Positions 50,470 through 58,515 of a stretch of DNA of 64,000 bases are shown here, piece by piece; within the stretch, counting starts at the first letter, position 1; every line of letters begins with the position of its first letter. The notes beneath the pieces were generated by a model. It saw nothing but the letters and a program-made list of their open reading frames with translations. It ran no database searches and had not been told where the DNA came from. The translations under genes were made by a program, and so were the position numbers. This DNA is from Pirellulales bacterium (GTDB lineage: Bacteria; Planctomycetota; Planctomycetia; Pirellulales; UBA1268): positions 340 through 64,339 of the forward strand of contig JAFMIU010000006.1 in the NCBI GenBank assembly GCA_017853835.1, given 5' to 3'.

Positions 50470-50855
50470 TGGCGGGGCCGAGTCGGCCCGAATGACCATA
50501 CGTTTCCTGATCGAGCAGCCCAGGCTGTATCGGGGAAAACGAGTGTCCATCCGCCAGAACACCCTTGTTTCTGGCTGAATCGCACGACTCCCGGAATTGA
50601 TCCCGGCTGCGCGCGAAAGGTTCGATGAGCCCGGACACGCGTGCGGACGACTCGTCTTCATGCGTGTTCCGGGATCGCATGCCCGGAAGACGAGTTGCTG
50701 GGGCCTTCGGCTCTTTCCGAAGCCCCGGTGCAGCGTAGGCCGAATCGGCTGACCGTCGCGCGACGGTCATGCCTTCGTCGCTGCACCGACACCCATGTCG
50801 GTGTCCATCCACGGAACGGAATCCTCTTGTTCCCTGTGTTCGTGGAGGTCATTCC

Positions 50856-51677
50856 ATGGTCAAGGTAAGTTCATGCGCCCGACTGATCGTCGGGCTTGTT
50901 GTCGGTGTATTCGTCGTGCCCTCGTTCGGGAGTCCGATCGTGTATACCGGAACAGGCACCTCGTCGCTGGGGCATCCGGTCGTGTTTTCGGCCGAGTTCG
51001 TCTTCAACGACGATTTGTTGACGCTGACGTTGTCGAACGAATCGCCGTTCGACACGACGGACGCGGCGGACACGCTGTCGAGTGTCTACTTCGACATTCT
51101 CAGCGGGTCGACGCGGCCGGCGCTCTCCTACGAGGGAGGATCGGGTTTCGTGTACCAGGTGTGGAAGAACGCGGCGGATACGTGCTACTACTACACGCCG
51201 CAGATGTTTTTGCCGGACTGTGATATCCCCAGCGATCTGGGGGCCTTTGCGGACGGTGACGCCACCTGGCAGTTTCGGGTGATGAATTCGGGCACGGCAC
51301 CGATGCTCGGATTCGGGATCGGCACGGTGGGCAACAGCATGCTGTCGCCCAACGGGTTCAATCCGGCGATCGTGGGCCCACCGGGCACTGGGATGATCAA
51401 CTTCGCGATCTATCGCGGGGGGGACATTCAGCCCAACGGGATTCTCAATGGCCGGTTTCTGGTGAAGAACACGGCCACGTTCACGTTTACCGGCGTGACG
51501 GGCTTCGGCGAGGAAGCTCTCGTGGACAAGGTCGTGTTTGGCCTTGGCACCGGGCCAGATTCCACGGTGACGGTGTCGCTGCCCGAGCCTCCACTCGCCG
51601 GCATGGCGGTGGCAAGCCTCGGTAGTTGCGGGATGCTGCTGCGGCGGCGCGGTCTGTCGGCCGTCCGCGACCTCTAG
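50856..51677 (+). CDS. PEP-CTERM-anchored secreted protein
   Basis: GGAGG SD 7 nt upstream. Signal peptide LIVGLVVGVFVVPSFG. C-terminal LPEPPLAGMAVASLGSCGMLLRRRG. Confidence 0.65.
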   Translation: MVKVSSCARLIVGLVVGVFVVPSFGSPIVYTGTGTSSLGHPVVFSAEFVFNDDLLTLTLSNESPFDTTDAADTLSSVYFDILSGSTRPALSYEGGSGFVYQVWKNAADTCYYYTPQMFLPDCDIPSDLGAFADGDATWQFRVMNSGTAPMLGFGIGTVGNSMLSPNGFNPAIVGPPGTGMINFAIYRGGDIQPNGILNGRFLVKNTATFTFTGVTGFGEEALVDKVVFGLGTGPDSTVTVSLPEPPLAGMAVASLGSCGMLLRRRGLSAVRDL

Positions 51678-51971: not shown

Positions 51972-52301
51972 CTATCGCTGCCCAAGGACCGACACCGGAG
52001 TGGCAGCCGTGTGGCTGGCCACCTGTTCCACCGGCAACGAGGGCGTCGCCGCCGCGACCGTGCAGCAGCTTCGCACCACAACTTCCTCGATCACCACGCC
52101 ACAGCACGACGAGCAGCAGCTCGTTGAACACGGCGACGGGCAGGCGACCGTGCAGCAGCACGGGTCGCAGCACGTCGTGCAGCAACAGCAGGCCGAGCGA
52201 CGGGCCCGGCGTCCGTGTGCTGCCTCGGCATCGAGGCTCGTGGTGGCCACAACAGCGATCATTGCAAGCCCTACGAACATTCGGCAAACATTCTTTGACA
52301 T
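51972..52301 (-). CDS. Secreted cysteine-rich mini-protein (109 aa, 18 Cys, runs of CC/CCC/CCCC)
   Basis: GGGAGA lies 7 nt upstream of the ATG. Signal peptide MSKNVCRMFVGLAMIAVVATTSLDAEA. Core SACCCCTTCCDPCCCTVACPSPCSTSCCSSCCG...RSCC. Third codon positions are mostly G/C in this frame. Confidence 0.5.
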   Translation of the reverse strand: MSKNVCRMFVGLAMIAVVATTSLDAEAAHGRRARRSACCCCTTCCDPCCCTVACPSPCSTSCCSSCCGVVIEEVVVRSCCTVAAATPSLPVEQVASHTAATPVSVLGQR

Positions 52302-52410: not shown

Positions 52411-52899
52411 TCACTTCACGGCAACCGGCACCTTCCGCGACGTGCTGACGGCCGACTTCGTGAGGTCGACCGTCAGGATTCCGTTGTCGAACGAGGCCGA
52501 GACCTTCTCCGGATCGACCGGATCGGGCAGCGGGATCGTGCGGCTGAACGCCCCGTAGTGACTCTCGACGTGGGACCAGCCGTTGCCGCCCTTCGACACC
52601 TTCGACTTCTTTTCACCGGAAATCACGAGCCGATCCTCGGTGACATCCACATCGACCGCCTTGGGATCGATGCCTGGCAGCTCAGCCCTCACCTGGATCG
52701 TCGTTGGATCATCAGCGATGTCGATCGCCGGCAGCCACTGCCCAGGCGAGGAGGTCTCGAACCACGTTGGCATCGTGGATGACCGGGTGAACAACCCGTC
52801 GAACAGCCTGTTCATCTCGGCCCGTACATCGGAAAGTGGCCTGGCTGCCAGGGGCTCGAGGCCACTTGATCGCCAGCTCTGAAAGGGTATCAGGACCAT
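52411..52899 (-). CDS. Hsp20/alpha-crystallin small heat-shock protein
   Basis: ELPGIDPKAVDVDVTEDRLVISGEKK...GAFSRTIPLPDPVDPEKVSASFDNGILTVDL. AGGAG SD upstream of ATG 52899. Confidence 0.88.
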   Translation of the reverse strand: MVLIPFQSWRSSGLEPLAARPLSDVRAEMNRLFDGLFTRSSTMPTWFETSSPGQWLPAIDIADDPTTIQVRAELPGIDPKAVDVDVTEDRLVISGEKKSKVSKGGNGWSHVESHYGAFSRTIPLPDPVDPEKVSASFDNGILTVDLTKSAVSTSRKVPVAVK

Positions 52900-53088
52900 G
52901 GGTACGTATCTCCTCTGAGGAAAGAAAAATGGAACCATCCGGTGAGCCGCCCAACACGGCGTCGGTGCGGCGAGAAGCCGCGCGTCCTGGCGGGGTAAGG
53001 ATTCGCAGCGTCCAACTCAAAGGCAAGCAGCATGGGTGATACGAACCACGAATCACACCCGTGGGCTGGAAGTTGCCCAGGCCCCGTG

Positions 53089-54315
53089 TCAATACCGATA
53101 GACCGCGGCAAGGCCGGTTGACGATGGCATCGCCTCACGATCGAGCGCCAACACCTGCCCACGGTGCAACACGACCGTTTCGGCAATCGCTCCGAAGACG
53201 TCCTCACCCGCAGGACGTGAGCTGGACCGTTGAGGCGGCAGATCGGCCTCGGGCACGATGGCCCCCGCAATCAGCCCCGTCCGCGCATCGTAGACCCCTG
53301 GCTCAAACCGGTCCTTCTCGACCAGAAGCGTTGCGACACGGCCGCAGGCGGCGGCTTCACCGATCTCAGACAGGTTGGTCGCGCCACGGCCGCGCACCAC
53401 CGCCGCCTCGAATGCGGCCAACACCATTCCCAGACGATGCTGCCTCACCGCCGTCATGACGGCGGCGGCAGCTGCGGCAAGATCGCATTGAGGTGCCAGG
53501 TGCATGTCCTTGTCGACTCCCTCACCAAGCAACGCGGGGTTGCGTGACAATCGCCGATACACCGCCGCGAGCGGTTTAGGGGCCGCGAGGATCACCGGCA
53601 TGTCGACCGGAAAACCGGCCGACACAAGCCCCCGATCGACGTGCCGCAGAAACGTGATCGTGTCGGTATCGATCTCATCGTGTCGGGATCCAAACCCTCC
53701 GTGGAGTTGCATCCAAGGCGTTCTCATCCGGCGTGTTCGATGTGGCTCGCGCTGCTCTTCCTCGACGATGTCTCCGCGAAACATCGCCCCCAGGGCGGCC
53801 ATCCGGCCCCACGCGGGGGGAAGCGGGGCCGGAACGAACCTCGCCACCTGCCCGTCGGTCACTCGCCCCGCGTACACCCGGGCAAGCCTGCTGGTGAGCA
53901 CAAGCAGCAAAAACTCCTCCGACGCACAGGCCATGCGGAGCAGCGGAAGCGTGTGATACCGCGGTGCAACGACCGCGAGCGGAGGCACGGGCTCCGGGAG
54001 CAAGAACCCGTTCGCCTCGCCGTCGGCGGCGAAAACCACGAGGCCCTCGCTGGTATGCTCCCAAAACGGTGCGTGGTCGGCGAGCGCCTCGAGCGGCGAC
54101 AAAAGACGATCAACCTCGGATGGCCGGCGACCATCGCGGAGGCCCCGCCGAAGCGTCGCGAGGAGCTGACGATAGGTTGGCTGGTCAACCGTGTTGTCGG
54201 GCACGTTGCGGTGGGTCGGCAGATACACCGACAGGCAGGTTCCGTTCGACGGTTCGAGAAACGCTCGCACGACCTCGGGCGCGAAGGGATGGACGGGAAA
54301 GGGCAACGAAGCCAT
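53089..54315 (-). CDS. baeRF-like protein (bacterial homologue of archaeo-eukaryotic release factor eRF1/Pelota fold)
   Basis: N-terminal LSVYLPTHR. Domain-3-like GATNLSEIGEAAACGRVATLLVEKD (compare GAVETLLI of eRF1/Pelota). C-terminal GLAAVYRY (compare GIGAILRY). No GGQ; the equivalent region carries HGGFG. Confidence 0.5.
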   Translation of the reverse strand: MASLPFPVHPFAPEVVRAFLEPSNGTCLSVYLPTHRNVPDNTVDQPTYRQLLATLRRGLRDGRRPSEVDRLLSPLEALADHAPFWEHTSEGLVVFAADGEANGFLLPEPVPPLAVVAPRYHTLPLLRMACASEEFLLLVLTSRLARVYAGRVTDGQVARFVPAPLPPAWGRMAALGAMFRGDIVEEEQREPHRTRRMRTPWMQLHGGFGSRHDEIDTDTITFLRHVDRGLVSAGFPVDMPVILAAPKPLAAVYRRLSRNPALLGEGVDKDMHLAPQCDLAAAAAAVMTAVRQHRLGMVLAAFEAAVVRGRGATNLSEIGEAAACGRVATLLVEKDRFEPGVYDARTGLIAGAIVPEADLPPQRSSSRPAGEDVFGAIAETVVLHRGQVLALDREAMPSSTGLAAVYRY

Positions 54316-55186: not shown

Positions 55187-55864
55187 TCACGTCCCGGCGT
55201 CGTCGTGCAGGTGCCGGGTGAACCAGTCGGAGGCCCTCCGTGCGGACTCGGCGAGCGTTCCAGGCTCCTCGAAGAGATTGCTCGCCCCCGGAATGACATC
55301 GAGTTGCCGGTCCTCGCACCCGATTTCGGCCAGGAAATGGCGGTTCACCGCCAGTCCGTCGAGGTCATCACCGCCAACGATCAGGAGCGTGGGGGCGTGA
55401 ACCGAGCGGAGTTTCCGCCCCGCAAGGTCAAGACGGCCACCACTTGAAACAACCGCTTTTACCGTAGGCTCACACGCGGCTACCGCCAACGCGGCCGCCG
55501 CATCCGTGCCGGCACCGAACAGCCCGATGGACAGGTAACGCAGTTCCTCCCTGCGTTGCGCGAAACGAATCGCCACCAGCAGCCGTTCCGCAAGGAGCGG
55601 AATGTCGACGGTGGTCGCATGATGAGCGGACTCACCGTCGGTCAGAAGGTCGAACACAAGCGTGCTGATCCAGAAATCGTTCAGCACGCCGGCCACTGCG
55701 GCATGGCGATCGCTCGGAAGGCTAGATTCGCTGCCGCGGGCCAAGATGACCATGCCCGTCGGCGTCGCGGGAACGGTCAGACTGCCTGGCAAGGGAATCG
55801 ACCGCCCGTGAGCCCCTTTGGCGGGAACTATCACATCGAAGGTCTCGCAGAGCGGGCTGAGCAT
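55187..55864 (-). CDS. Dienelactone-hydrolase-like alpha/beta-fold protein, apparently lacking nucleophile and His
   Basis: DLH-like collinearity (APTLLIVGGDD, EEPGTL). The expected G-x-S-x-G elbow reads GAGTD and the expected PGA-x-H-x-F reads PGASNLF. Its ATG shares one base with the HPF stop (TGATG). Confidence 0.65.
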   Translation of the reverse strand: MLSPLCETFDVIVPAKGAHGRSIPLPGSLTVPATPTGMVILARGSESSLPSDRHAAVAGVLNDFWISTLVFDLLTDGESAHHATTVDIPLLAERLLVAIRFAQRREELRYLSIGLFGAGTDAAAALAVAACEPTVKAVVSSGGRLDLAGRKLRSVHAPTLLIVGGDDLDGLAVNRHFLAEIGCEDRQLDVIPGASNLFEEPGTLAESARRASDWFTRHLHDDAGT

Positions 55865-56454
55865 CACGGCTCCTTGGACGAGGGATGAACGGGGTGGTGA
55901 CGATGCGGATGGGCGAGGTGCACGACGGTCGCCTGAGGCCCGTTGTCGCCGTCCTCCACCGTGAAGACCACCTCCGATCCGCGATCGATCATTTGAAACT
56001 CGTCGTCGCTCATGGCGTGGTGGTGGAAATACACCTCTCGACCGTCGGGCGTGACAATGAAACCATACCCCTGAAGCGGAAAGATCTGCGAAATCTCGCC
56101 GTGAAGACGGGGCACGTGGGCCTTGTCTTCGCCCCGCATTCGCCGAACATGGTCTTCGAGCCGCCTGCGAGCCGCATCGAAGGCGTCTCGCATCGCCACG
56201 TAGACGTCCTCGTGGGCACGATTCTGGTGGTGGTCATGGTTCACCACGATCTCCCCACCTGGCATCAGTATGTCAACTCGCACCGAGTAGAGGTTCCCCG
56301 CACGATGACGGCGGTGCGGCATCGCCACCACCACGTGGCAGCCGGTGATCTGGGACGAAAACCGCTCGAGCTGGGCAACATGGTCAAGGGCGGCTTCCCG
56401 CACCGCATCATCAATGGGAATACCGTCAAACGACACCTCGGGCTGGGTCTGCAT
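55864..56454 (-). CDS. HPF/RaiA-family ribosome-associated factor fused to a cold-shock (CSD/OB) domain
   Basis: The N-half matches the YfiA/HPF pattern (…YSVRVDILMPGGEIVV…EDVYVAMRDAFDAARRRLE). The C-half is GYGFIVTPDGREVYFHHHAMSDDEFQMIDRGSEVVFTVEDGDNGPQATVV (CspA-like). AAGGAG SD 8 nt upstream. Confidence 0.8.
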   Translation of the reverse strand: MQTQPEVSFDGIPIDDAVREAALDHVAQLERFSSQITGCHVVVAMPHRRHRAGNLYSVRVDILMPGGEIVVNHDHHQNRAHEDVYVAMRDAFDAARRRLEDHVRRMRGEDKAHVPRLHGEISQIFPLQGYGFIVTPDGREVYFHHHAMSDDEFQMIDRGSEVVFTVEDGDNGPQATVVHLAHPHRHHPVHPSSKEP

Positions 56455-56908
56455 GGTGAGGCTCCTTACGGGGCAGGGATTTACGTTTCGGACGACATGC
56501 CGGCGGCTCGGACAACGAGAAGACGATCATCTCCTCGCCGGTGATTGTTGAGATGTCGTGGTGCACGCTCACGAGCTTCACACCAACCGCCATCTCCACG
56601 ATCTCGGCCAGCTTGGAACGACCTACCGCGACCATGTGGGCGCGCATCTGCTTGAGCAAGGAGCGACCATTGCCATTGCCATTGCCATTGCCGCCCGTCT
56701 TCACATCCCCGTCGTCGCCGACGCCGGCTGACACCGGCGGAGCGAGCAACTGTCGCTCCGCCGGTGTCAGCACCCCCTGAAGTCGCACGACCAGCAAATT
56801 GCCAACCAAGTGGGAGTGGATGTCTCGCGGGCCTCGGCCGACGAACTCCTGCTGAAACCGGGAAATGCCGTCGCACACAGCAGCTTCGATCTCGCCCTGG
56901 GATTTCAT
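56426..56908 (-). CDS. DUF2294 (MpsC-like) protein with Gly/Asn-repeat insertion
   Basis: MKSQGEIEAAVCDGISRFQQEFVGRGPRDIHSHLVGNLLVVRLQGVLTPAERQL...LVSVHHDISTITGEEMIVFSL. GGAGAA SD. Internal ATG 56908 of the track ORF. Confidence 0.75.
   Translation of the reverse strand: MKSQGEIEAAVCDGISRFQQEFVGRGPRDIHSHLVGNLLVVRLQGVLTPAERQLLAPPVSAGVGDDGDVKTGGNGNGNGNGRSLLKQMRAHMVAVGRSKLAEIVEMAVGVKLVSVHHDISTITGEEMIVFSLSEPPACRPKRKSLPRKEPHHADPARGVV
56667..56692. repeat. Hexanucleotide microsatellite (CCATTG)x4 inside DUF2294 coding sequence, encoding (NG)4
   Basis: ccattgccattgccattgccattgcc read directly from the sequence. Confidence 0.9.
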
Positions 56909-56939
56909 GCGACTTCTCCGGAGTGAGGGTGGACGAATG

Positions 56940-57188
56940 TCACGAAACGCGATGGCCAGCGGCGCTGGGCACGATCGTTCCATCGACGGTGACCGCGTGG
57001 GCACCGTTGCCATTGCAAATGCGATCCCACACCTCGCGACGATGGATTGGCATCCGAGAGTCGGCGGTAAAACCCAGCCGCACACGGCCCTGATCGATCT
57101 GGAGCACCGTGATCTCCAGAACGATTTCGAGGTCATGAGGCTGAGCGATCACCACACTTTCGCGATTCTTCCTGGTCAGTACCAACAT
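56940..57188 (-). CDS. csrA: Carbon storage regulator CsrA/RsmA homologue with C-terminal extension
   Basis: MLVLTRKNRESVVI...ITVLQIDQGRVRLGFTADSRMPIHRREVWDRI is collinear with the E. coli and B. subtilis CsrA sequences as recalled from memory (MLxLxR, GxxV(R/K)(I/L)G, HRxE). AGGUGA SD 4 nt upstream. Confidence 0.8.
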   Translation of the reverse strand: MLVLTRKNRESVVIAQPHDLEIVLEITVLQIDQGRVRLGFTADSRMPIHRREVWDRICNGNGAHAVTVDGTIVPSAAGHRVS

Positions 57189-57717
57189 ATGTCACCTTCT
57201 TCATGGCTGTGAGTCCCTTCGGATAGTAACCCCGCCGGACGGATCCATGGCCGTCCGCGCCATCGACATGGAAGTGGTCATCGACGGCAACGCCGAATGC
57301 CGCCGGGTGCCCGCCGAGCACGATGAGATCGATCGCCGCCTCCGTCGTGCAGGTCTTGAAAAGGCTACCGGTGGCCGTATCGATGTGGGTCGCCACAGCC
57401 CCCACCACCACGCCGGAGTGAGCCCGAACATGGTCGCGAAGGGCCTCGAACGACGACTCGACGAGCGAACGGTGCCAGGCGACAACGCGGTCATACCCAG
57501 AGGCCGACATCACGAGTTGGCGTTCCATCCCTGAGAGTGCCGTATGGATCGTGATCACGACCGAGGACGCCCCTGAGGAGATGGCGATGCTCCGTGGAAG
57601 GCGACCGAGGAGTCGCGCCTCGAAATCGCCGACGGCCCATGCGATCTGCCGCGCCCGGCGGAGCGCATCGTGACCGGCCTGGCGAGGGGCACGAACAGCA
57701 GCGGAAAGAGGAGACAT
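57133..57717 (-). CDS. Divergent DUF2294-like protein with ~70-aa C-terminal extension overlapping the csrA start
   Basis: GRLPRSIAISSGASSVVITIHTALSGMERQL...ATHIDTATGSLF parallels the GRGPRDI...LTPAE(R/Q)QL...HHDISTxTGE pattern of the two neighbouring paralogues. Start is ATG 57717 or GTG 57729. Confidence 0.5.
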   Translation of the reverse strand: MSPLSAAVRAPRQAGHDALRRARQIAWAVGDFEARLLGRLPRSIAISSGASSVVITIHTALSGMERQLVMSASGYDRVVAWHRSLVESSFEALRDHVRAHSGVVVGAVATHIDTATGSLFKTCTTEAAIDLIVLGGHPAAFGVAVDDHFHVDGADGHGSVRRGYYPKGLTAMKKVTYVGTDQEESRKCGDRSAS

Positions 57718-57794
57718 GGGCGGCAGCACTCCGGGGGCGAGGGTGAGGTCGGTTTGAAGATCGCGTACCGGGTGCCAACGCGTCGTTCTGGAAT

Positions 57795-57851
57795 GAAAAC
57801 GAAAAAAGCCGGCGAGGGAGGCTGCCCGTGGGCCTGCTCTCTCACCGGCTT
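57795..57851 (-). terminator. Strong Rho-independent terminator (minus strand)
   Basis: RNA: AAGCCGGUGAGAGAG-(16 nt)-CUCCCUCGCCGGCUU followed by UUUUCGUUUUC. 15-bp stem with one G.U pair and one mismatch. Confidence 0.65.
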
Positions 57852-57948
57852 ACGCTGCGCTGGACCGCCGGCTACGCCGGCCTGCCCCTCGACTCGTCTT
57901 CCGCGAAATGTTGTTTTTGCCGAGTTTGAGACTGGTTTTCGCAACCAT
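57850..57948 (-). other. 32-codon basic sORF or untranslated leader/sRNA between promoter and terminator
   Basis: ATG 57948 ... TAA 57852..57850 encodes MVAKTSLKLGKNNISRKTSRGAGRRSRRSSAA. Locally AT-rich with atypical AAA/AAC codons. The SD is poor (GAGA abuts the ATG). Confidence 0.3.
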
Positions 57949-57967
57949 TCTCGCTTCGACGTTCGCG

Positions 57968-57995
57968 ATTATACGTGGCGATCTGGGCAAGGCAA
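57968..57995 (-). promoter_or_regulatory. Sigma70-like promoter (minus strand): TTGCCT - 16 nt - TATAAT
   Basis: A perfect TATAAT hexamer (57973..57968) in a high-GC context, with TTGCCT at 57995..57990. Confidence 0.45.
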
Positions 57996-58092
57996 GAAGA
58001 CTCTGCGGGCGATCAACAGTCATTGAAGCCACCTCCACTGAAATGACGAACGAATACCACAACACCCCCCCCTCGGGGGGCTTCTCCGCAGG

Positions 58093-58515
58093 ATGCCAGA
58101 CATGCGATCCCGAGGCGAAATCGAGGCGGCGGTCTGCAGTGCGGTGGCCCGCTTCCAGCAGGATTACATGGGGCGTGGCCCGCGAGACATCCAGGCCCAT
58201 CTGATCGACGACACGCTCGTCGTGCACCTGCGTGGCGTGCTCTCAGCAGCCGAACAGCGATTGATCGATCGCGTCGATGGCTCAAATGGCCGTGGGGCTG
58301 ATCTCTTGAAGCAGCTGCGCAGTCATCTCGTGCTCACGGGCCGGCCAGTGCTCGAGGAACTCGTGGCTGTTGCCACCGGCGCGCGGCCGATCACCATGCA
58401 CCACGATATCAGCACGGCCACGGGTGAGGAAGTGATCGTGGTCACGCTGGCGGCCGCCCCCGTCCTCCGCACTCGACGAGACGCGGCCAAGGTGTCCCAA
58501 CGGCCACCATCATGA
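58093..58515 (+). CDS. DUF2294 (MpsC-like) protein
   Basis: RSRGEIEAAVCSAVARFQQDYMGRGPRDIQAHLIDDTLVVHLRGVLSAAEQRL...ITMHHDISTATGEEVIVVTL. Close paralogue of 56426..56908. Confidence 0.75.
   Translation: MPDMRSRGEIEAAVCSAVARFQQDYMGRGPRDIQAHLIDDTLVVHLRGVLSAAEQRLIDRVDGSNGRGADLLKQLRSHLVLTGRPVLEELVAVATGARPITMHHDISTATGEEVIVVTLAAAPVLRTRRDAAKVSQRPPS

Follow-up and report, generated by a model that had tools for sequence, protein, structure and literature searches.

What is a csrA gene doing among three genes of the DUF2294 family, and do these genes form a regulatory unit? The question is raised by a 64,000-nucleotide (nt) stretch from a Pirellulales bacterium (contig JAFMIU010000006.1, positions 340 to 64,339; hereafter the window). 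The original prediction, made from the letters of this stretch, proposed that csrA, the DUF2294 paralogues and a translationally coupled ribosome-hibernation factor form a self-contained post-transcriptional module. The present analysis shows that the cassette of csrA and DUF2294 genes is a real, undescribed regulatory unit, and the earlier interpretation is partly supported. The csrA gene does not lie among DUF2294 genes by accident; together they most likely form a conserved post-transcriptional control operon of freshwater Planctomycetota, found in about 200 loci. PF10057/DUF2294 has been renamed 'MpsC' in Pfam, and the three paralogues are called mpsC1, mpsC2 and mpsC3 here. Coordinates are positions in the window, on the minus strand unless stated. 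The features of the cassette are as follows.

57968..57995, minus strand: promoter of the leader and operon, sigma-70-type (TTGCCT, 16-nt spacer, TATAAT).
57795..57961, minus strand: type-1 structured leader RNA of about 165 nt (alignments A3 and A4).
57717..57133, minus strand: mpsC1, 194 amino acids, the first gene after the putative attenuator and a divergent PF10057 paralogue.
57189..57228, minus strand: csrA translation-initiation leader, a short hairpin with an (A)RGGA(Y) loop plus the Shine-Dalgarno sequence.
57188..56940, minus strand: csrA, 82 amino acids, CsrA-family RNA-binding protein.
56908..56426, minus strand: mpsC2, 160 amino acids, PF10057 paralogue directly 3' of csrA.
58102..58515, plus strand: mpsC3, 137 amino acids, divergent PF10057/MpsC paralogue.

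All five minus-strand open reading frames (ORFs) of the proposed module, their overlaps and the divergent third paralogue were confirmed; each coordinate, the overlap lengths and the TGATG junction between the last two ORFs were checked against the ORF list and the sequence. The 3' end of mpsC1, which has an alternative GTG start at 57729, reaches 56 nt into csrA, and a 31-nt gap separates the end of csrA from the start of mpsC2. The divergent paralogue is present on the plus strand, but its start is better placed at ATG 58102 than at ATG 58093, which would give 140 amino acids: gene callers and homologues begin at the M(K/R)SQGEIE motif. The domain calls (CsrA, three DUF2294, a fusion of HPF with a cold-shock domain, and a dienelactone hydrolase (DLH)-like protein) hold as well, by Pfam scores above the cut-offs and, for the DLH-like protein, by a PDB match. 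The scores against PF10057 (gathering cut-off 23 bits) are 36.8 bits for mpsC1, 101.4 for mpsC2 (E 4e-29, with the match broken into two stretches by an insertion) and 100.7 for mpsC3 (E 6e-29). The GRGPR and HHDIS motifs are common to MpsC2 and MpsC3, as is a basic tail at the C-terminus with the conserved Arg/Lys-rich sequences CRDRRRR and VRDKKRK, whereas MpsC1 is divergent.

The 82-residue protein belongs to the CsrA family, matching PF02599 over residues 1-57 with 57.4 bits (gathering score 27). It reaches 44-48 bits against the NCBIfam csrA equivalog models, under their cut-offs of 70-106, and is thus a divergent family member rather than a canonical equivalog. CsrA proteins bind RNA through an N-terminal beta1 motif, (M)L(I/V)LTR(K/R), and a beta5 HRxE motif with a critical arginine (R44 in E. 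coli). Both motifs are intact in the window protein, where MLVLTRK and IHRRE align with LVLTRK/MLILTRK and IHRKE/VHREE of the PDB entries 5dmb_D, 2jpp_A and 1t3o_A; 1y00 and 7yr6 are further PDB matches. Outside these motifs the protein has a 6-residue insertion and a variable C-terminal tail. It has 897 homologues, with identities of 62-86% among the 120 matches listed. Judged from its residues, the protein is probably of the canonical GGA-RNA-binding type. The statement that fliW and a flagellar context are lacking stands for the region scanned: neither FliW (PF02623) nor flagellar Pfam families occur among the genes at 52.4-62.8 kb, the part of the window covered.

Conservation of the gene order was analyzed by scanning one genome per species with the window CsrA. 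The scan gave 80 loci, all in metagenome-assembled genomes (MAGs) of Planctomycetota, with CsrA identities of 62-84% to the window; at least two MAGs contributed two loci each (L009 and L080, L039 and L067). Neighbours were scored by tblastn with the window proteins, counting only loci with enough flank. An mpsC1-type gene lies directly upstream of csrA in 76 of 78 genome loci, an mpsC2-type gene directly downstream in 62 of 63, and a divergent mpsC3-type gene within 4.5 kb in 48 of 51. These counts, to which at least 118 metagenome contigs are added below, uphold the csrA-DUF2294 adjacency, and the conserved adjacency favours a functional unit. The identities to the window are about 30-55% for mpsC1, 60-77% for mpsC2 and 60-74% for mpsC3. 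The three paralogues fall into distinct orthologous groups; therefore, the triplication is old and each copy has been maintained. In about 25 loci csrA and mpsC2 are separated by 2 nt or overlap by 4 nt. The 56-nt overlap of mpsC1 with csrA was rejected as a conserved feature, as it is confined to the window lineage; in most loci the mpsC1 stop lies about 40 nt before csrA.

The cassette is found in two chromosomal settings. In the commoner one, a REC-PP2C response regulator comes next, then tRNAs and tuf-secE-nusG-rplK, and this tuf-side setting is probably the ancestral position. In the window, the cassette stands beside Hsp20, orf122 and the DLH-like gene, a setting to which those of L050, L054, L070 and L071 are closest. 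The gene order could in principle be neutral inheritance in a narrow clade, and all the genome loci are indeed Planctomycetota MAGs chosen by CsrA similarity. However, the order persists despite the divergence of mpsC1 to 30-45% identity, in the duplicated cassettes of the two-cassette MAGs and in both chromosomal contexts, and a dedicated conserved leader RNA marks the unit. Neutral synteny, taken together with the proposal that the hibernation factor is an integral coupled part of the module (see below), is very improbable. That the cassette and its leader form a functional unit is highly likely.

Three side observations concern these loci. The response regulator of the tuf-side setting has REC and SpoIIE/PP2C phosphatase domains and, with the tRNAs and tuf-secE-nusG-rplK, follows the cassette at L059:6792-8012 (+) and in about 48 other genome loci. 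Locus L154 (9856-10600) is a deletion variant, in which an ORF joining the mpsC1 N-terminus to a middle part of csrA comes after the leader RNA, with mpsC2 next. Several MAG bins with a Pirellulales-type cassette are labelled 'Candidatus Kuenenia' or 'Chitinophagaceae' (L010, L011, L027, L032, L042 and others), which is likely a taxonomic misassignment.

The leader RNA belongs to an RNA layer that the original prediction had missed, together with a GGA hairpin before csrA and a second RNA copy before a surface-protein gene. The promoter scores 10/12 in a consensus scan, and the block CTTGCnTTnCCnAGATTGCCCA-ATATAAT is kept across 77 loci. In the 5' to 3' direction, the promoter is followed by a variable 5' hairpin, an A-rich linker, a near-invariant core, a GC-rich terminator hairpin and U7. 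The core reads CGGAAGACGAGUCGAGGGGCA ... GGUCC(G/A)(U/G)CGCAGCGUAAGCC, with the alignment consensus CGGAAGACGAGUCGAGGGGCA ... GGUCCGUCGCAGCGUAAGCC, and folds into an irregular helix (P2) topped by a hairpin that covaries. In the RNAalifold structure, ACG/CGU, CGA/UCG and GGGC/GUCC pair round a 3x3 internal loop (AGU/CAG), and the apical hairpin and the upper terminator stem covary; 11 of the 37 pairs have compensatory changes. The window leader folds with a minimum free energy of -72.9 kcal/mol (z -3.56), and its intrinsic terminator spans about 57851-57807 with the U-run at 57806-57801. T-runs of at least five, rare at 65% GC, occur at the equivalent position in nearly every locus.

A covariance model built from the 3' domain of the leader (R1) scores 95.7 bits in the window and finds one copy per locus at 96-124 bits; minus-strand covariance-model matches at the leader coordinates were discarded as mirror matches of the terminator hairpin. 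Rfam 15 (4227 families) gave no relevant match, with E limits of 1 for the region 51-61 kb and of 10 for 57.7-58.1 kb. As an independent test, metagenome contigs were scanned with the 20-nt core alone, which returned at least 118 contigs. Among the metagenome matches listed, the core is followed by mpsC1 in 106 of 109, by csrA in 91 of 93 and by mpsC2 in 64 of 65. Two apparent exceptions to the RNA-operon link, L089 and L131, were dismissed as chance 20-mer matches with the rest of the motif missing, and the third is the deletion variant L154. The type-1 leader is thus a structured RNA exclusive to the cassette.

The terminator lies only about 85 nt ahead of mpsC1 (this stretch was judged by eye), and the operon is therefore expected to be expressed by read-through. 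We infer that the leader probably acts by attenuation. A search for an anti-terminator showed that the apical hairpin is complementary to the 5' arm of the terminator in type-1 and in some, not all, copies of the second RNA type described below; no anti-terminator pairing conserved in both types was found among these copies.

A related RNA lies elsewhere in the window, ahead of a gene of another kind.

50683..50780, plus strand: type-2 copy of the leader motif, CCGGAAGACGAGUUGCUGGGGC-hairpin-GCCCCGGUGCAGCGUAGGCC.
50856..51677, plus strand: gene that follows the type-2 RNA and encodes an exosortase-dependent (PEP-CTERM) surface protein of the XDD4 family.

The window type-2 copy scores 35.9 bits with R1 (E about 3e-8) and has no U-run terminator. 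Eight more copies were found at 26-63 bits (L011, L038, L067, L073, L077, two in L084, and L109). Type-2 RNAs keep CGGAAGACGAGU ... GCAGCGUAGGCC, with compensatory changes in P2 (A:U to C:G in 7 sequences, and G.U to G:C) and a different apical stem. All nine copies lie ahead of secreted proteins with PEP-CTERM tails, and five of the six downstream proteins scanned, the window's included, match NF045504 of NCBIfam. The window protein does so with 149.3 bits (cut-off 40, E 1.3e-43), and its C-terminus is LPEP...GMLLRRRG; the Pfam PEP-CTERM motif alone gives E 0.98.

The leaders of the XDD4 genes also carry GGA motifs. In the window, ACGGAACGGAAUCC is located about 45 nt upstream of a GGAGG Shine-Dalgarno sequence, and in the other seven loci with a readable region, a conserved GC(A)GCGGAYGCC element precedes a GGAG Shine-Dalgarno sequence by 40-50 nt. 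Classical CsrA targets have such a two-site layout, with one GGA upstream and another within the Shine-Dalgarno site. The common leader core, together with the GGA element and the GGAG Shine-Dalgarno sequence, suggests that the operon and the XDD4 genes form one regulon. Co-regulation of the XDD4 genes with the operon is moderately likely, and the XDD4 genes are predicted CsrA targets.

Two further observations were made on the type-2 RNAs. Just upstream of the window copy, at about 50648-50660 (+), the sequence GACGACUCGUCUUC is complementary to the conserved core GAAGACGAGU, and the two may form an alternative pairing. About 10-60 nt past the terminator of type-2 loci (for example L011:1160-1215 and L084:1300-1350), a conserved hairpin UGCGCCGA...UCGGCGCA is followed by GGUGCAGCGGAYGCC, which presents a GGA and is similar to GCAGCGUAAGCC, the 3' strand of the leader core.

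What reads the leader core? A protein encoded in the operon has nearly an even chance of being the reader; a small-molecule ligand is possible, and a reader of some other kind is unlikely. One explanation is that leader types 1 and 2 constitute a new riboswitch class, in which a ligand (for example a second messenger or an inorganic-carbon-related metabolite) binds the invariant internal-loop core and sets termination versus read-through. CsrA and the MpsC proteins would then only be outputs of that signal, with no contact needed between them. The nucleotides of the core do not vary, while covariation is seen in the flanking helices and in the apical hairpin, whose 108 distinct segments all fold. 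The core adjoins an intrinsic terminator, as in transcriptional riboswitches, and the match-free Rfam search would suit a new class. The motif also precedes two unrelated gene classes, regulators and surface proteins, and control of unrelated gene classes is typical of second-messenger riboswitches. However, the type-1 P2 helices are near-invariant rather than covarying, which protein recognition or overlapping alternative structures fit at least equally well. The anti-terminator search gave no convincing conserved pairing, and the ligand is not inferable. In addition, the type-1 leader stands strictly ahead of an operon for an RNA-binding protein, an arrangement classically associated with autoregulation by a protein. 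The riboswitch explanation is doubtful.

A protein reader could be MpsC itself, acting as an RNA-binding attenuation protein like PyrR or TRAP that recognizes the core before its own operon and before the XDD4 genes. The position of mpsC1 as the first gene after the attenuator in nearly all the metagenome matches listed agrees with such a role, as do the basic C-terminal tails of MpsC2 and MpsC3, and a near-invariant core suits a protein-recognition site. However, no known RNA-binding fold is apparent in the model of MpsC3, tails of basic residues are widespread and lack specificity, and the MpsC genes of Firmicutes adjoin transporters with no sign of a leader RNA. An attenuation role of MpsC is quite unlikely.

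The second RNA element of the operon lies at the start of csrA. The block CCGGARGGAYCCRCAACCAUGAAGAAGGUGACCC-AUG, roughly 40 nt, is kept in 79 loci, most of which do not code for protein in this stretch. In the window, the hairpin corresponds to 57222-57211 (CCGAAGGGACUC) and the csrA Shine-Dalgarno sequence to AAGGUGA at 57198-57192. The three pairs of the stem vary in a compensatory manner in alignment A2 (GC71/CG5/UG2, CG30/UA16/AU3 and GC72/GU6/AU1), and the covariation score was reached by 0 of 500 shuffles. CsrA sites canonically take the form of a hairpin with GGA in its loop. The conserved loop presents its GGA about 10 nt upstream of the csrA ribosome-binding site, which suggests autoregulation by CsrA; repression of its own translation is put at an even chance on this sequence evidence. 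A GGA-rich block at the 3' end of csrA (CGGAYGGAGG) was also considered as an RNA-level site for mpsC2. This block is present in only 16 of 79 loci and always in the same coding frame, and is therefore uninformative either way.

The MpsC proteins were examined by structure prediction and by their genomic contexts. The AlphaFold2 model of MpsC3, with a predicted local distance difference test score of 87, shows four helices on a four-stranded sheet in an alpha/beta arrangement. A PDB sequence search with MpsC3 gave chance matches only. The best Foldseek match in the PDB, TRAPPC3/Bet3 with an E of 0.035 and a TM-score of about 0.4, does not suffice for assigning a V4R/Bet3-like fold. The gene neighbourhoods are more informative. 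DabA (PF10070) and a NuoL-like DabB follow mpsC3 in 20 of 53 genome loci and in 12 of 28 metagenome loci, so that mpsC3 heads an mpsC-dabA-dabB operon in about 40% of the loci (L014, L017, L030, L056, L057 (1680-4760, minus strand), L059 (114-1505, minus strand) and others); tblastn found no DabA or DabB in the window. On a plasmid of Anoxybacillus amylolyticus (L209, 6001-7497), a DUF2294 gene is located directly upstream of an SbtA-type sodium-dependent bicarbonate permease gene, and a plasmid of Staphylococcus pettenkoferi (L210, 1507-6357) has an IS6-flanked segment with the order dabB-dabA-hyp-DUF2294, where hyp is a hypothetical gene. MpsC/DUF2294 is thus tied to two unrelated types of inorganic-carbon transporter.

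According to Fan et al. 2019, mpsC is not co-located with mpsAB homologues outside staphylococci (PMC6689103), a statement that these Planctomycetes contradict. The earlier remark that DUF2294 has no established biochemical role still holds, but the family is now MpsC and recurs beside inorganic-carbon transporters. Since genomic context is the only functional lead, the MpsC proteins are best regarded as candidate small regulatory or sensor proteins tied to inorganic-carbon uptake. Literature searches on DUF2294/MpsC/YbcI with CsrA, on MpsC, and on PEP-CTERM with riboswitches returned no description of the association, and the claim that it is undescribed therefore stands for the papers searched; a 2026 survey of CsrA diversity reports many planctomycete CsrA paralogues and does not mention MpsC (PMC13443453).

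The same contexts allow an explanation in which CsrA and MpsC form no complex. The MpsC proteins would then be cargo or targets, namely regulators or sensors of inorganic-carbon uptake like SbtB for SbtA, and CsrA would tune their translation and its own. The DAB and SbtA-type links occur in Planctomycetes and Firmicutes, and CsrA is absent from the Firmicute cases. GGA is present in the Shine-Dalgarno regions of mpsC2 (CCGGAGAAG) and mpsC3 (GCAGGAUGC) in the window. Neither a CsrA-MpsC fusion among the homologues listed nor a conserved CsrA tail speaks for a complex. However, the Shine-Dalgarno consensus is AGGAGG, and a GGA there is therefore expected by chance. The explanation also leaves the rigid flanking of csrA by two further paralogues, and their coupling, without a reason, also in loci that lack neighbouring dab genes, the window among them. 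MpsC as a mere target of CsrA is rather unlikely.

The reading preferred here is an autoregulated CsrA operon, controlled by attenuation and then by CsrA at GGA sites, with the MpsC proteins as protein-level modulators. In this model, a strong sigma-70-type promoter would drive a structured leader of about 165 nt ending in the intrinsic terminator, and read-through of the attenuator would be needed to reach mpsC1, csrA and mpsC2; mpsC3 would be transcribed divergently and, in about 40% of the related loci, as the head of the mpsC-dabA-dabB CO2-uptake operon. CsrA would most likely bind the GGA hairpin by its ribosome-binding site and repress its own translation. The operon and the XDD4 surface-protein genes would constitute one regulon, regulated by attenuation first and by CsrA at translation second. 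The MpsC paralogues would be cytoplasmic proteins of small size and alpha/beta fold, produced in step with CsrA. They would most likely modulate the CsrA protein with a logic like that of FliW or CesT and would relay inorganic-carbon or energy status, as suggested by their company with DAB or SbtA-type transporters in three lineages. The stress genes at the 3' end of the operon would be a separate unit.

Several observations weigh against this reading. At the RNA level, the leader core has a single GGA, the csrA Shine-Dalgarno sequence has none, and the stem of the GGA hairpin is only 2-4 bp long, with a weak 2-bp stem in the window. At the protein level, a Foldseek search against the PDB returned no significant structural relative of the MpsC3 model, and no CsrA-MpsC fusion proteins are present among the 240 homologues listed. 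The C-terminal tail of Bacillus CsrA touches FliW, whereas the tail is not conserved here, and many tblastn alignments end at residues 58-62. MpsC also occurs without CsrA on the Anoxybacillus and S. pettenkoferi plasmids. In S. aureus mpsABC, deletion of mpsC has no phenotype and MpsC is dispensable for MpsAB activity (PMC6689103). Finally, the loci all belong to one planctomycete clade and were picked by similarity to the window CsrA or to the leader RNA, so that kinship inflates the counts. Taken as a whole, the autoregulated operon with MpsC modulators is about as probable as all else combined. Its component in which MpsC physically controls CsrA, which draws on gene context, is plausible at a level somewhat below even. 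The broadest form of the proposal is speculative and less likely than not: MpsC/DUF2294 would be a new class of CsrA modulators linking inorganic-carbon or energy status to translation, and leader types 1 and 2 would be a new riboswitch or attenuator class defining a CsrA-MpsC and exosortase-dependent surface-protein regulon in Planctomycetota.

Does the hibernation factor belong to this unit? The genes downstream of mpsC2 are as follows.

56454..55864, minus strand: HPF-CSD, 196 amino acids, a fusion of HPF (Ribosomal_S30AE) with a cold-shock domain.
55864..55187, minus strand: DLH-like alpha/beta hydrolase, 225 amino acids, translationally coupled to HPF-CSD.
53089-54315, minus strand: baeRF_family3 gene (Pfam), encoding a bacterial aeRF1-like protein, context.
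52411-52938, minus strand: Hsp20 gene (Pfam), context.

HPF-CSD matches PF02482 with 48.5 bits (cut-off 23.7) and PF00313 with 47.5 bits (cut-off 27). It has at least 1335 homologues, of which the best 120 all have both domains, and belongs to a large, already annotated planctomycete family. Its TGA stop (55866-55864) has one base in common with the ATG of the DLH-like gene (55864-55862). The DLH-like ORF matches PDB 2o2g, a 'dienelactone hydrolase', with E 3e-39 over residues 22-219, and the label is fair on this account; the window protein has no Pfam match, and the Pfam DLH model weakly matches one homologue. The 29-nt overlap of mpsC2 with HPF-CSD in the window would favour its membership in the module. 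However, only the window lineage and L007 have HPF-CSD after the cassette, and elsewhere it has its own partners. In four loci in three settings (L203, L206/L207 and L208), HPF-CSD and the DLH-like gene are coupled by a 4-nt overlap and are followed by a phosphoribosyltransferase gene, with no MpsC or CsrA nearby. HPF-CSD was consequently rejected as a cassette member; with the DLH-like gene it makes up a stress unit of its own, which is docked to the operon at the 3' end. Thus, of the self-contained module that had been proposed, the conserved csrA-DUF2294 unit remains and the hibernation factor falls outside it. The baeRF_family3, Hsp20, HPF-CSD and DLH-like genes form a stress/translation-shutdown cluster. 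The conserved HPF-CSD/DLH/phosphoribosyltransferase trio is found at L203:7001-11002 and in L206-L208, and in two of these loci divergent RtcB and archease (RNA repair) genes adjoin it.

Other features of the window were noted in passing.

58065..58080, plus strand: C-run/G-run hairpin, CCCCCCCCUCGGGGGG, in the 5' untranslated region of mpsC3, 22-37 nt upstream of the start codon.

An equivalent C5-7...G5-7 hairpin, with loop sequences that vary, lies some 20-35 nt ahead of the start codon in most mpsC3 orthologues. Within mpsC2, a perfect (GGCAAT)x4 repeat at 56667-56692 (period 6 and 4.3 copies in Tandem Repeats Finder) encodes GNGNGNGNG in a surface loop. Homologues have (GN)n runs of differing length at this site (P0229, P0237 and the mpsC3 of L084), and a length-variable loop is possible. 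A 109-residue ORF at 51972-52301 (minus strand) begins like a signal peptide and is extremely rich in Cys in its core, CCCCTTCCDPCCCTVACPSPCSTSCCSSCC; it is a candidate gene only.

CsrA is among the most widespread post-transcriptional regulators. To our knowledge, only sponge sRNAs and FliW are well established as controllers of CsrA, with CesT as a special case, and no planctomycete CsrA paralogue has a known controller. Many such paralogues are found in Planctomycetota (PMC13443453). The cassette supplies three MpsC proteins as candidate CsrA partners, a dedicated cis-regulatory RNA with an invariant core, and probable targets in the XDD4 PEP-CTERM genes. The orphan DUF2294/MpsC family gains a functional lead by its links to CsrA and to the two transporter types, and the leader motif offers a starting point in the search for riboswitches or attenuators. 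With its new candidate partners and its previously undescribed leader RNA, the CsrA module points to a new mode of CsrA control.

Comparisons with known systems place the cassette among them. In the neighbourhoods described by Burroughs and Aravind 2019 (PMC6514570), baeRF-1 and HPF are associated; the window fits this pattern, with its HPF-family and baeRF_family3 genes about 1.5 kb apart on the same strand, with Hsp20. In contrast, the window HPF carries a fused cold-shock domain and its gene is coupled to that of a DLH-like hydrolase, and the cluster adjoins the CsrA-MpsC cassette but is separable from it. The MpsABC/DAB systems (S. aureus mpsABC and DabAB) share with the cassette the PF10057 protein, which is MpsC in S. 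aureus, and the arrangement of DabA and DabB after mpsC3 in many related loci. However, the window has no dabA or dabB, MpsC is dispensable in S. aureus, and DabC of DAB1 is a membrane protein unrelated to MpsC. We know of no CsrA link in the MpsABC/DAB system.

The CsrA-FliW system of Bacillus subtilis, Campylobacter and Geobacillus (PDB 5DMB) resembles the cassette in the tight linkage, often with translational coupling, of csrA to a gene that encodes a small protein of the cytoplasm. No sponge sRNA of the CsrB type is evident, and the best PDB sequence match of the window CsrA is the Geobacillus CsrA of the FliW complex. Unlike in that system, the partner genes of the window are of the PF10057/MpsC family and are three rather than one, the partnership is here a prediction from the genes, the flagellar context is lacking, and the C-terminal tail of CsrA is not conserved. 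Compared with autoregulation by CsrA and with the two-site GGA leaders, as in csrA and glgC of E. coli and hag of B. subtilis, the window has only one clear candidate GGA site at csrA, where the Shine-Dalgarno sequence is AAGGUGA. It shares with them a hairpin-loop GGA just upstream of the csrA ribosome-binding site, and the XDD4 leaders carry a GGA element and a GGA-containing Shine-Dalgarno sequence 35-45 nt apart. Compared with the PyrR/pyr and TRAP/trp leaders and with transcriptional riboswitches, the window leader matches 0 of 4227 Rfam families and shows no anti-terminator pairing conserved in both RNA types. It has in common with them a structured 5' leader and an intrinsic terminator before an operon encoding an RNA-binding protein, and related RNA copies ahead of other genes of the putative regulon.

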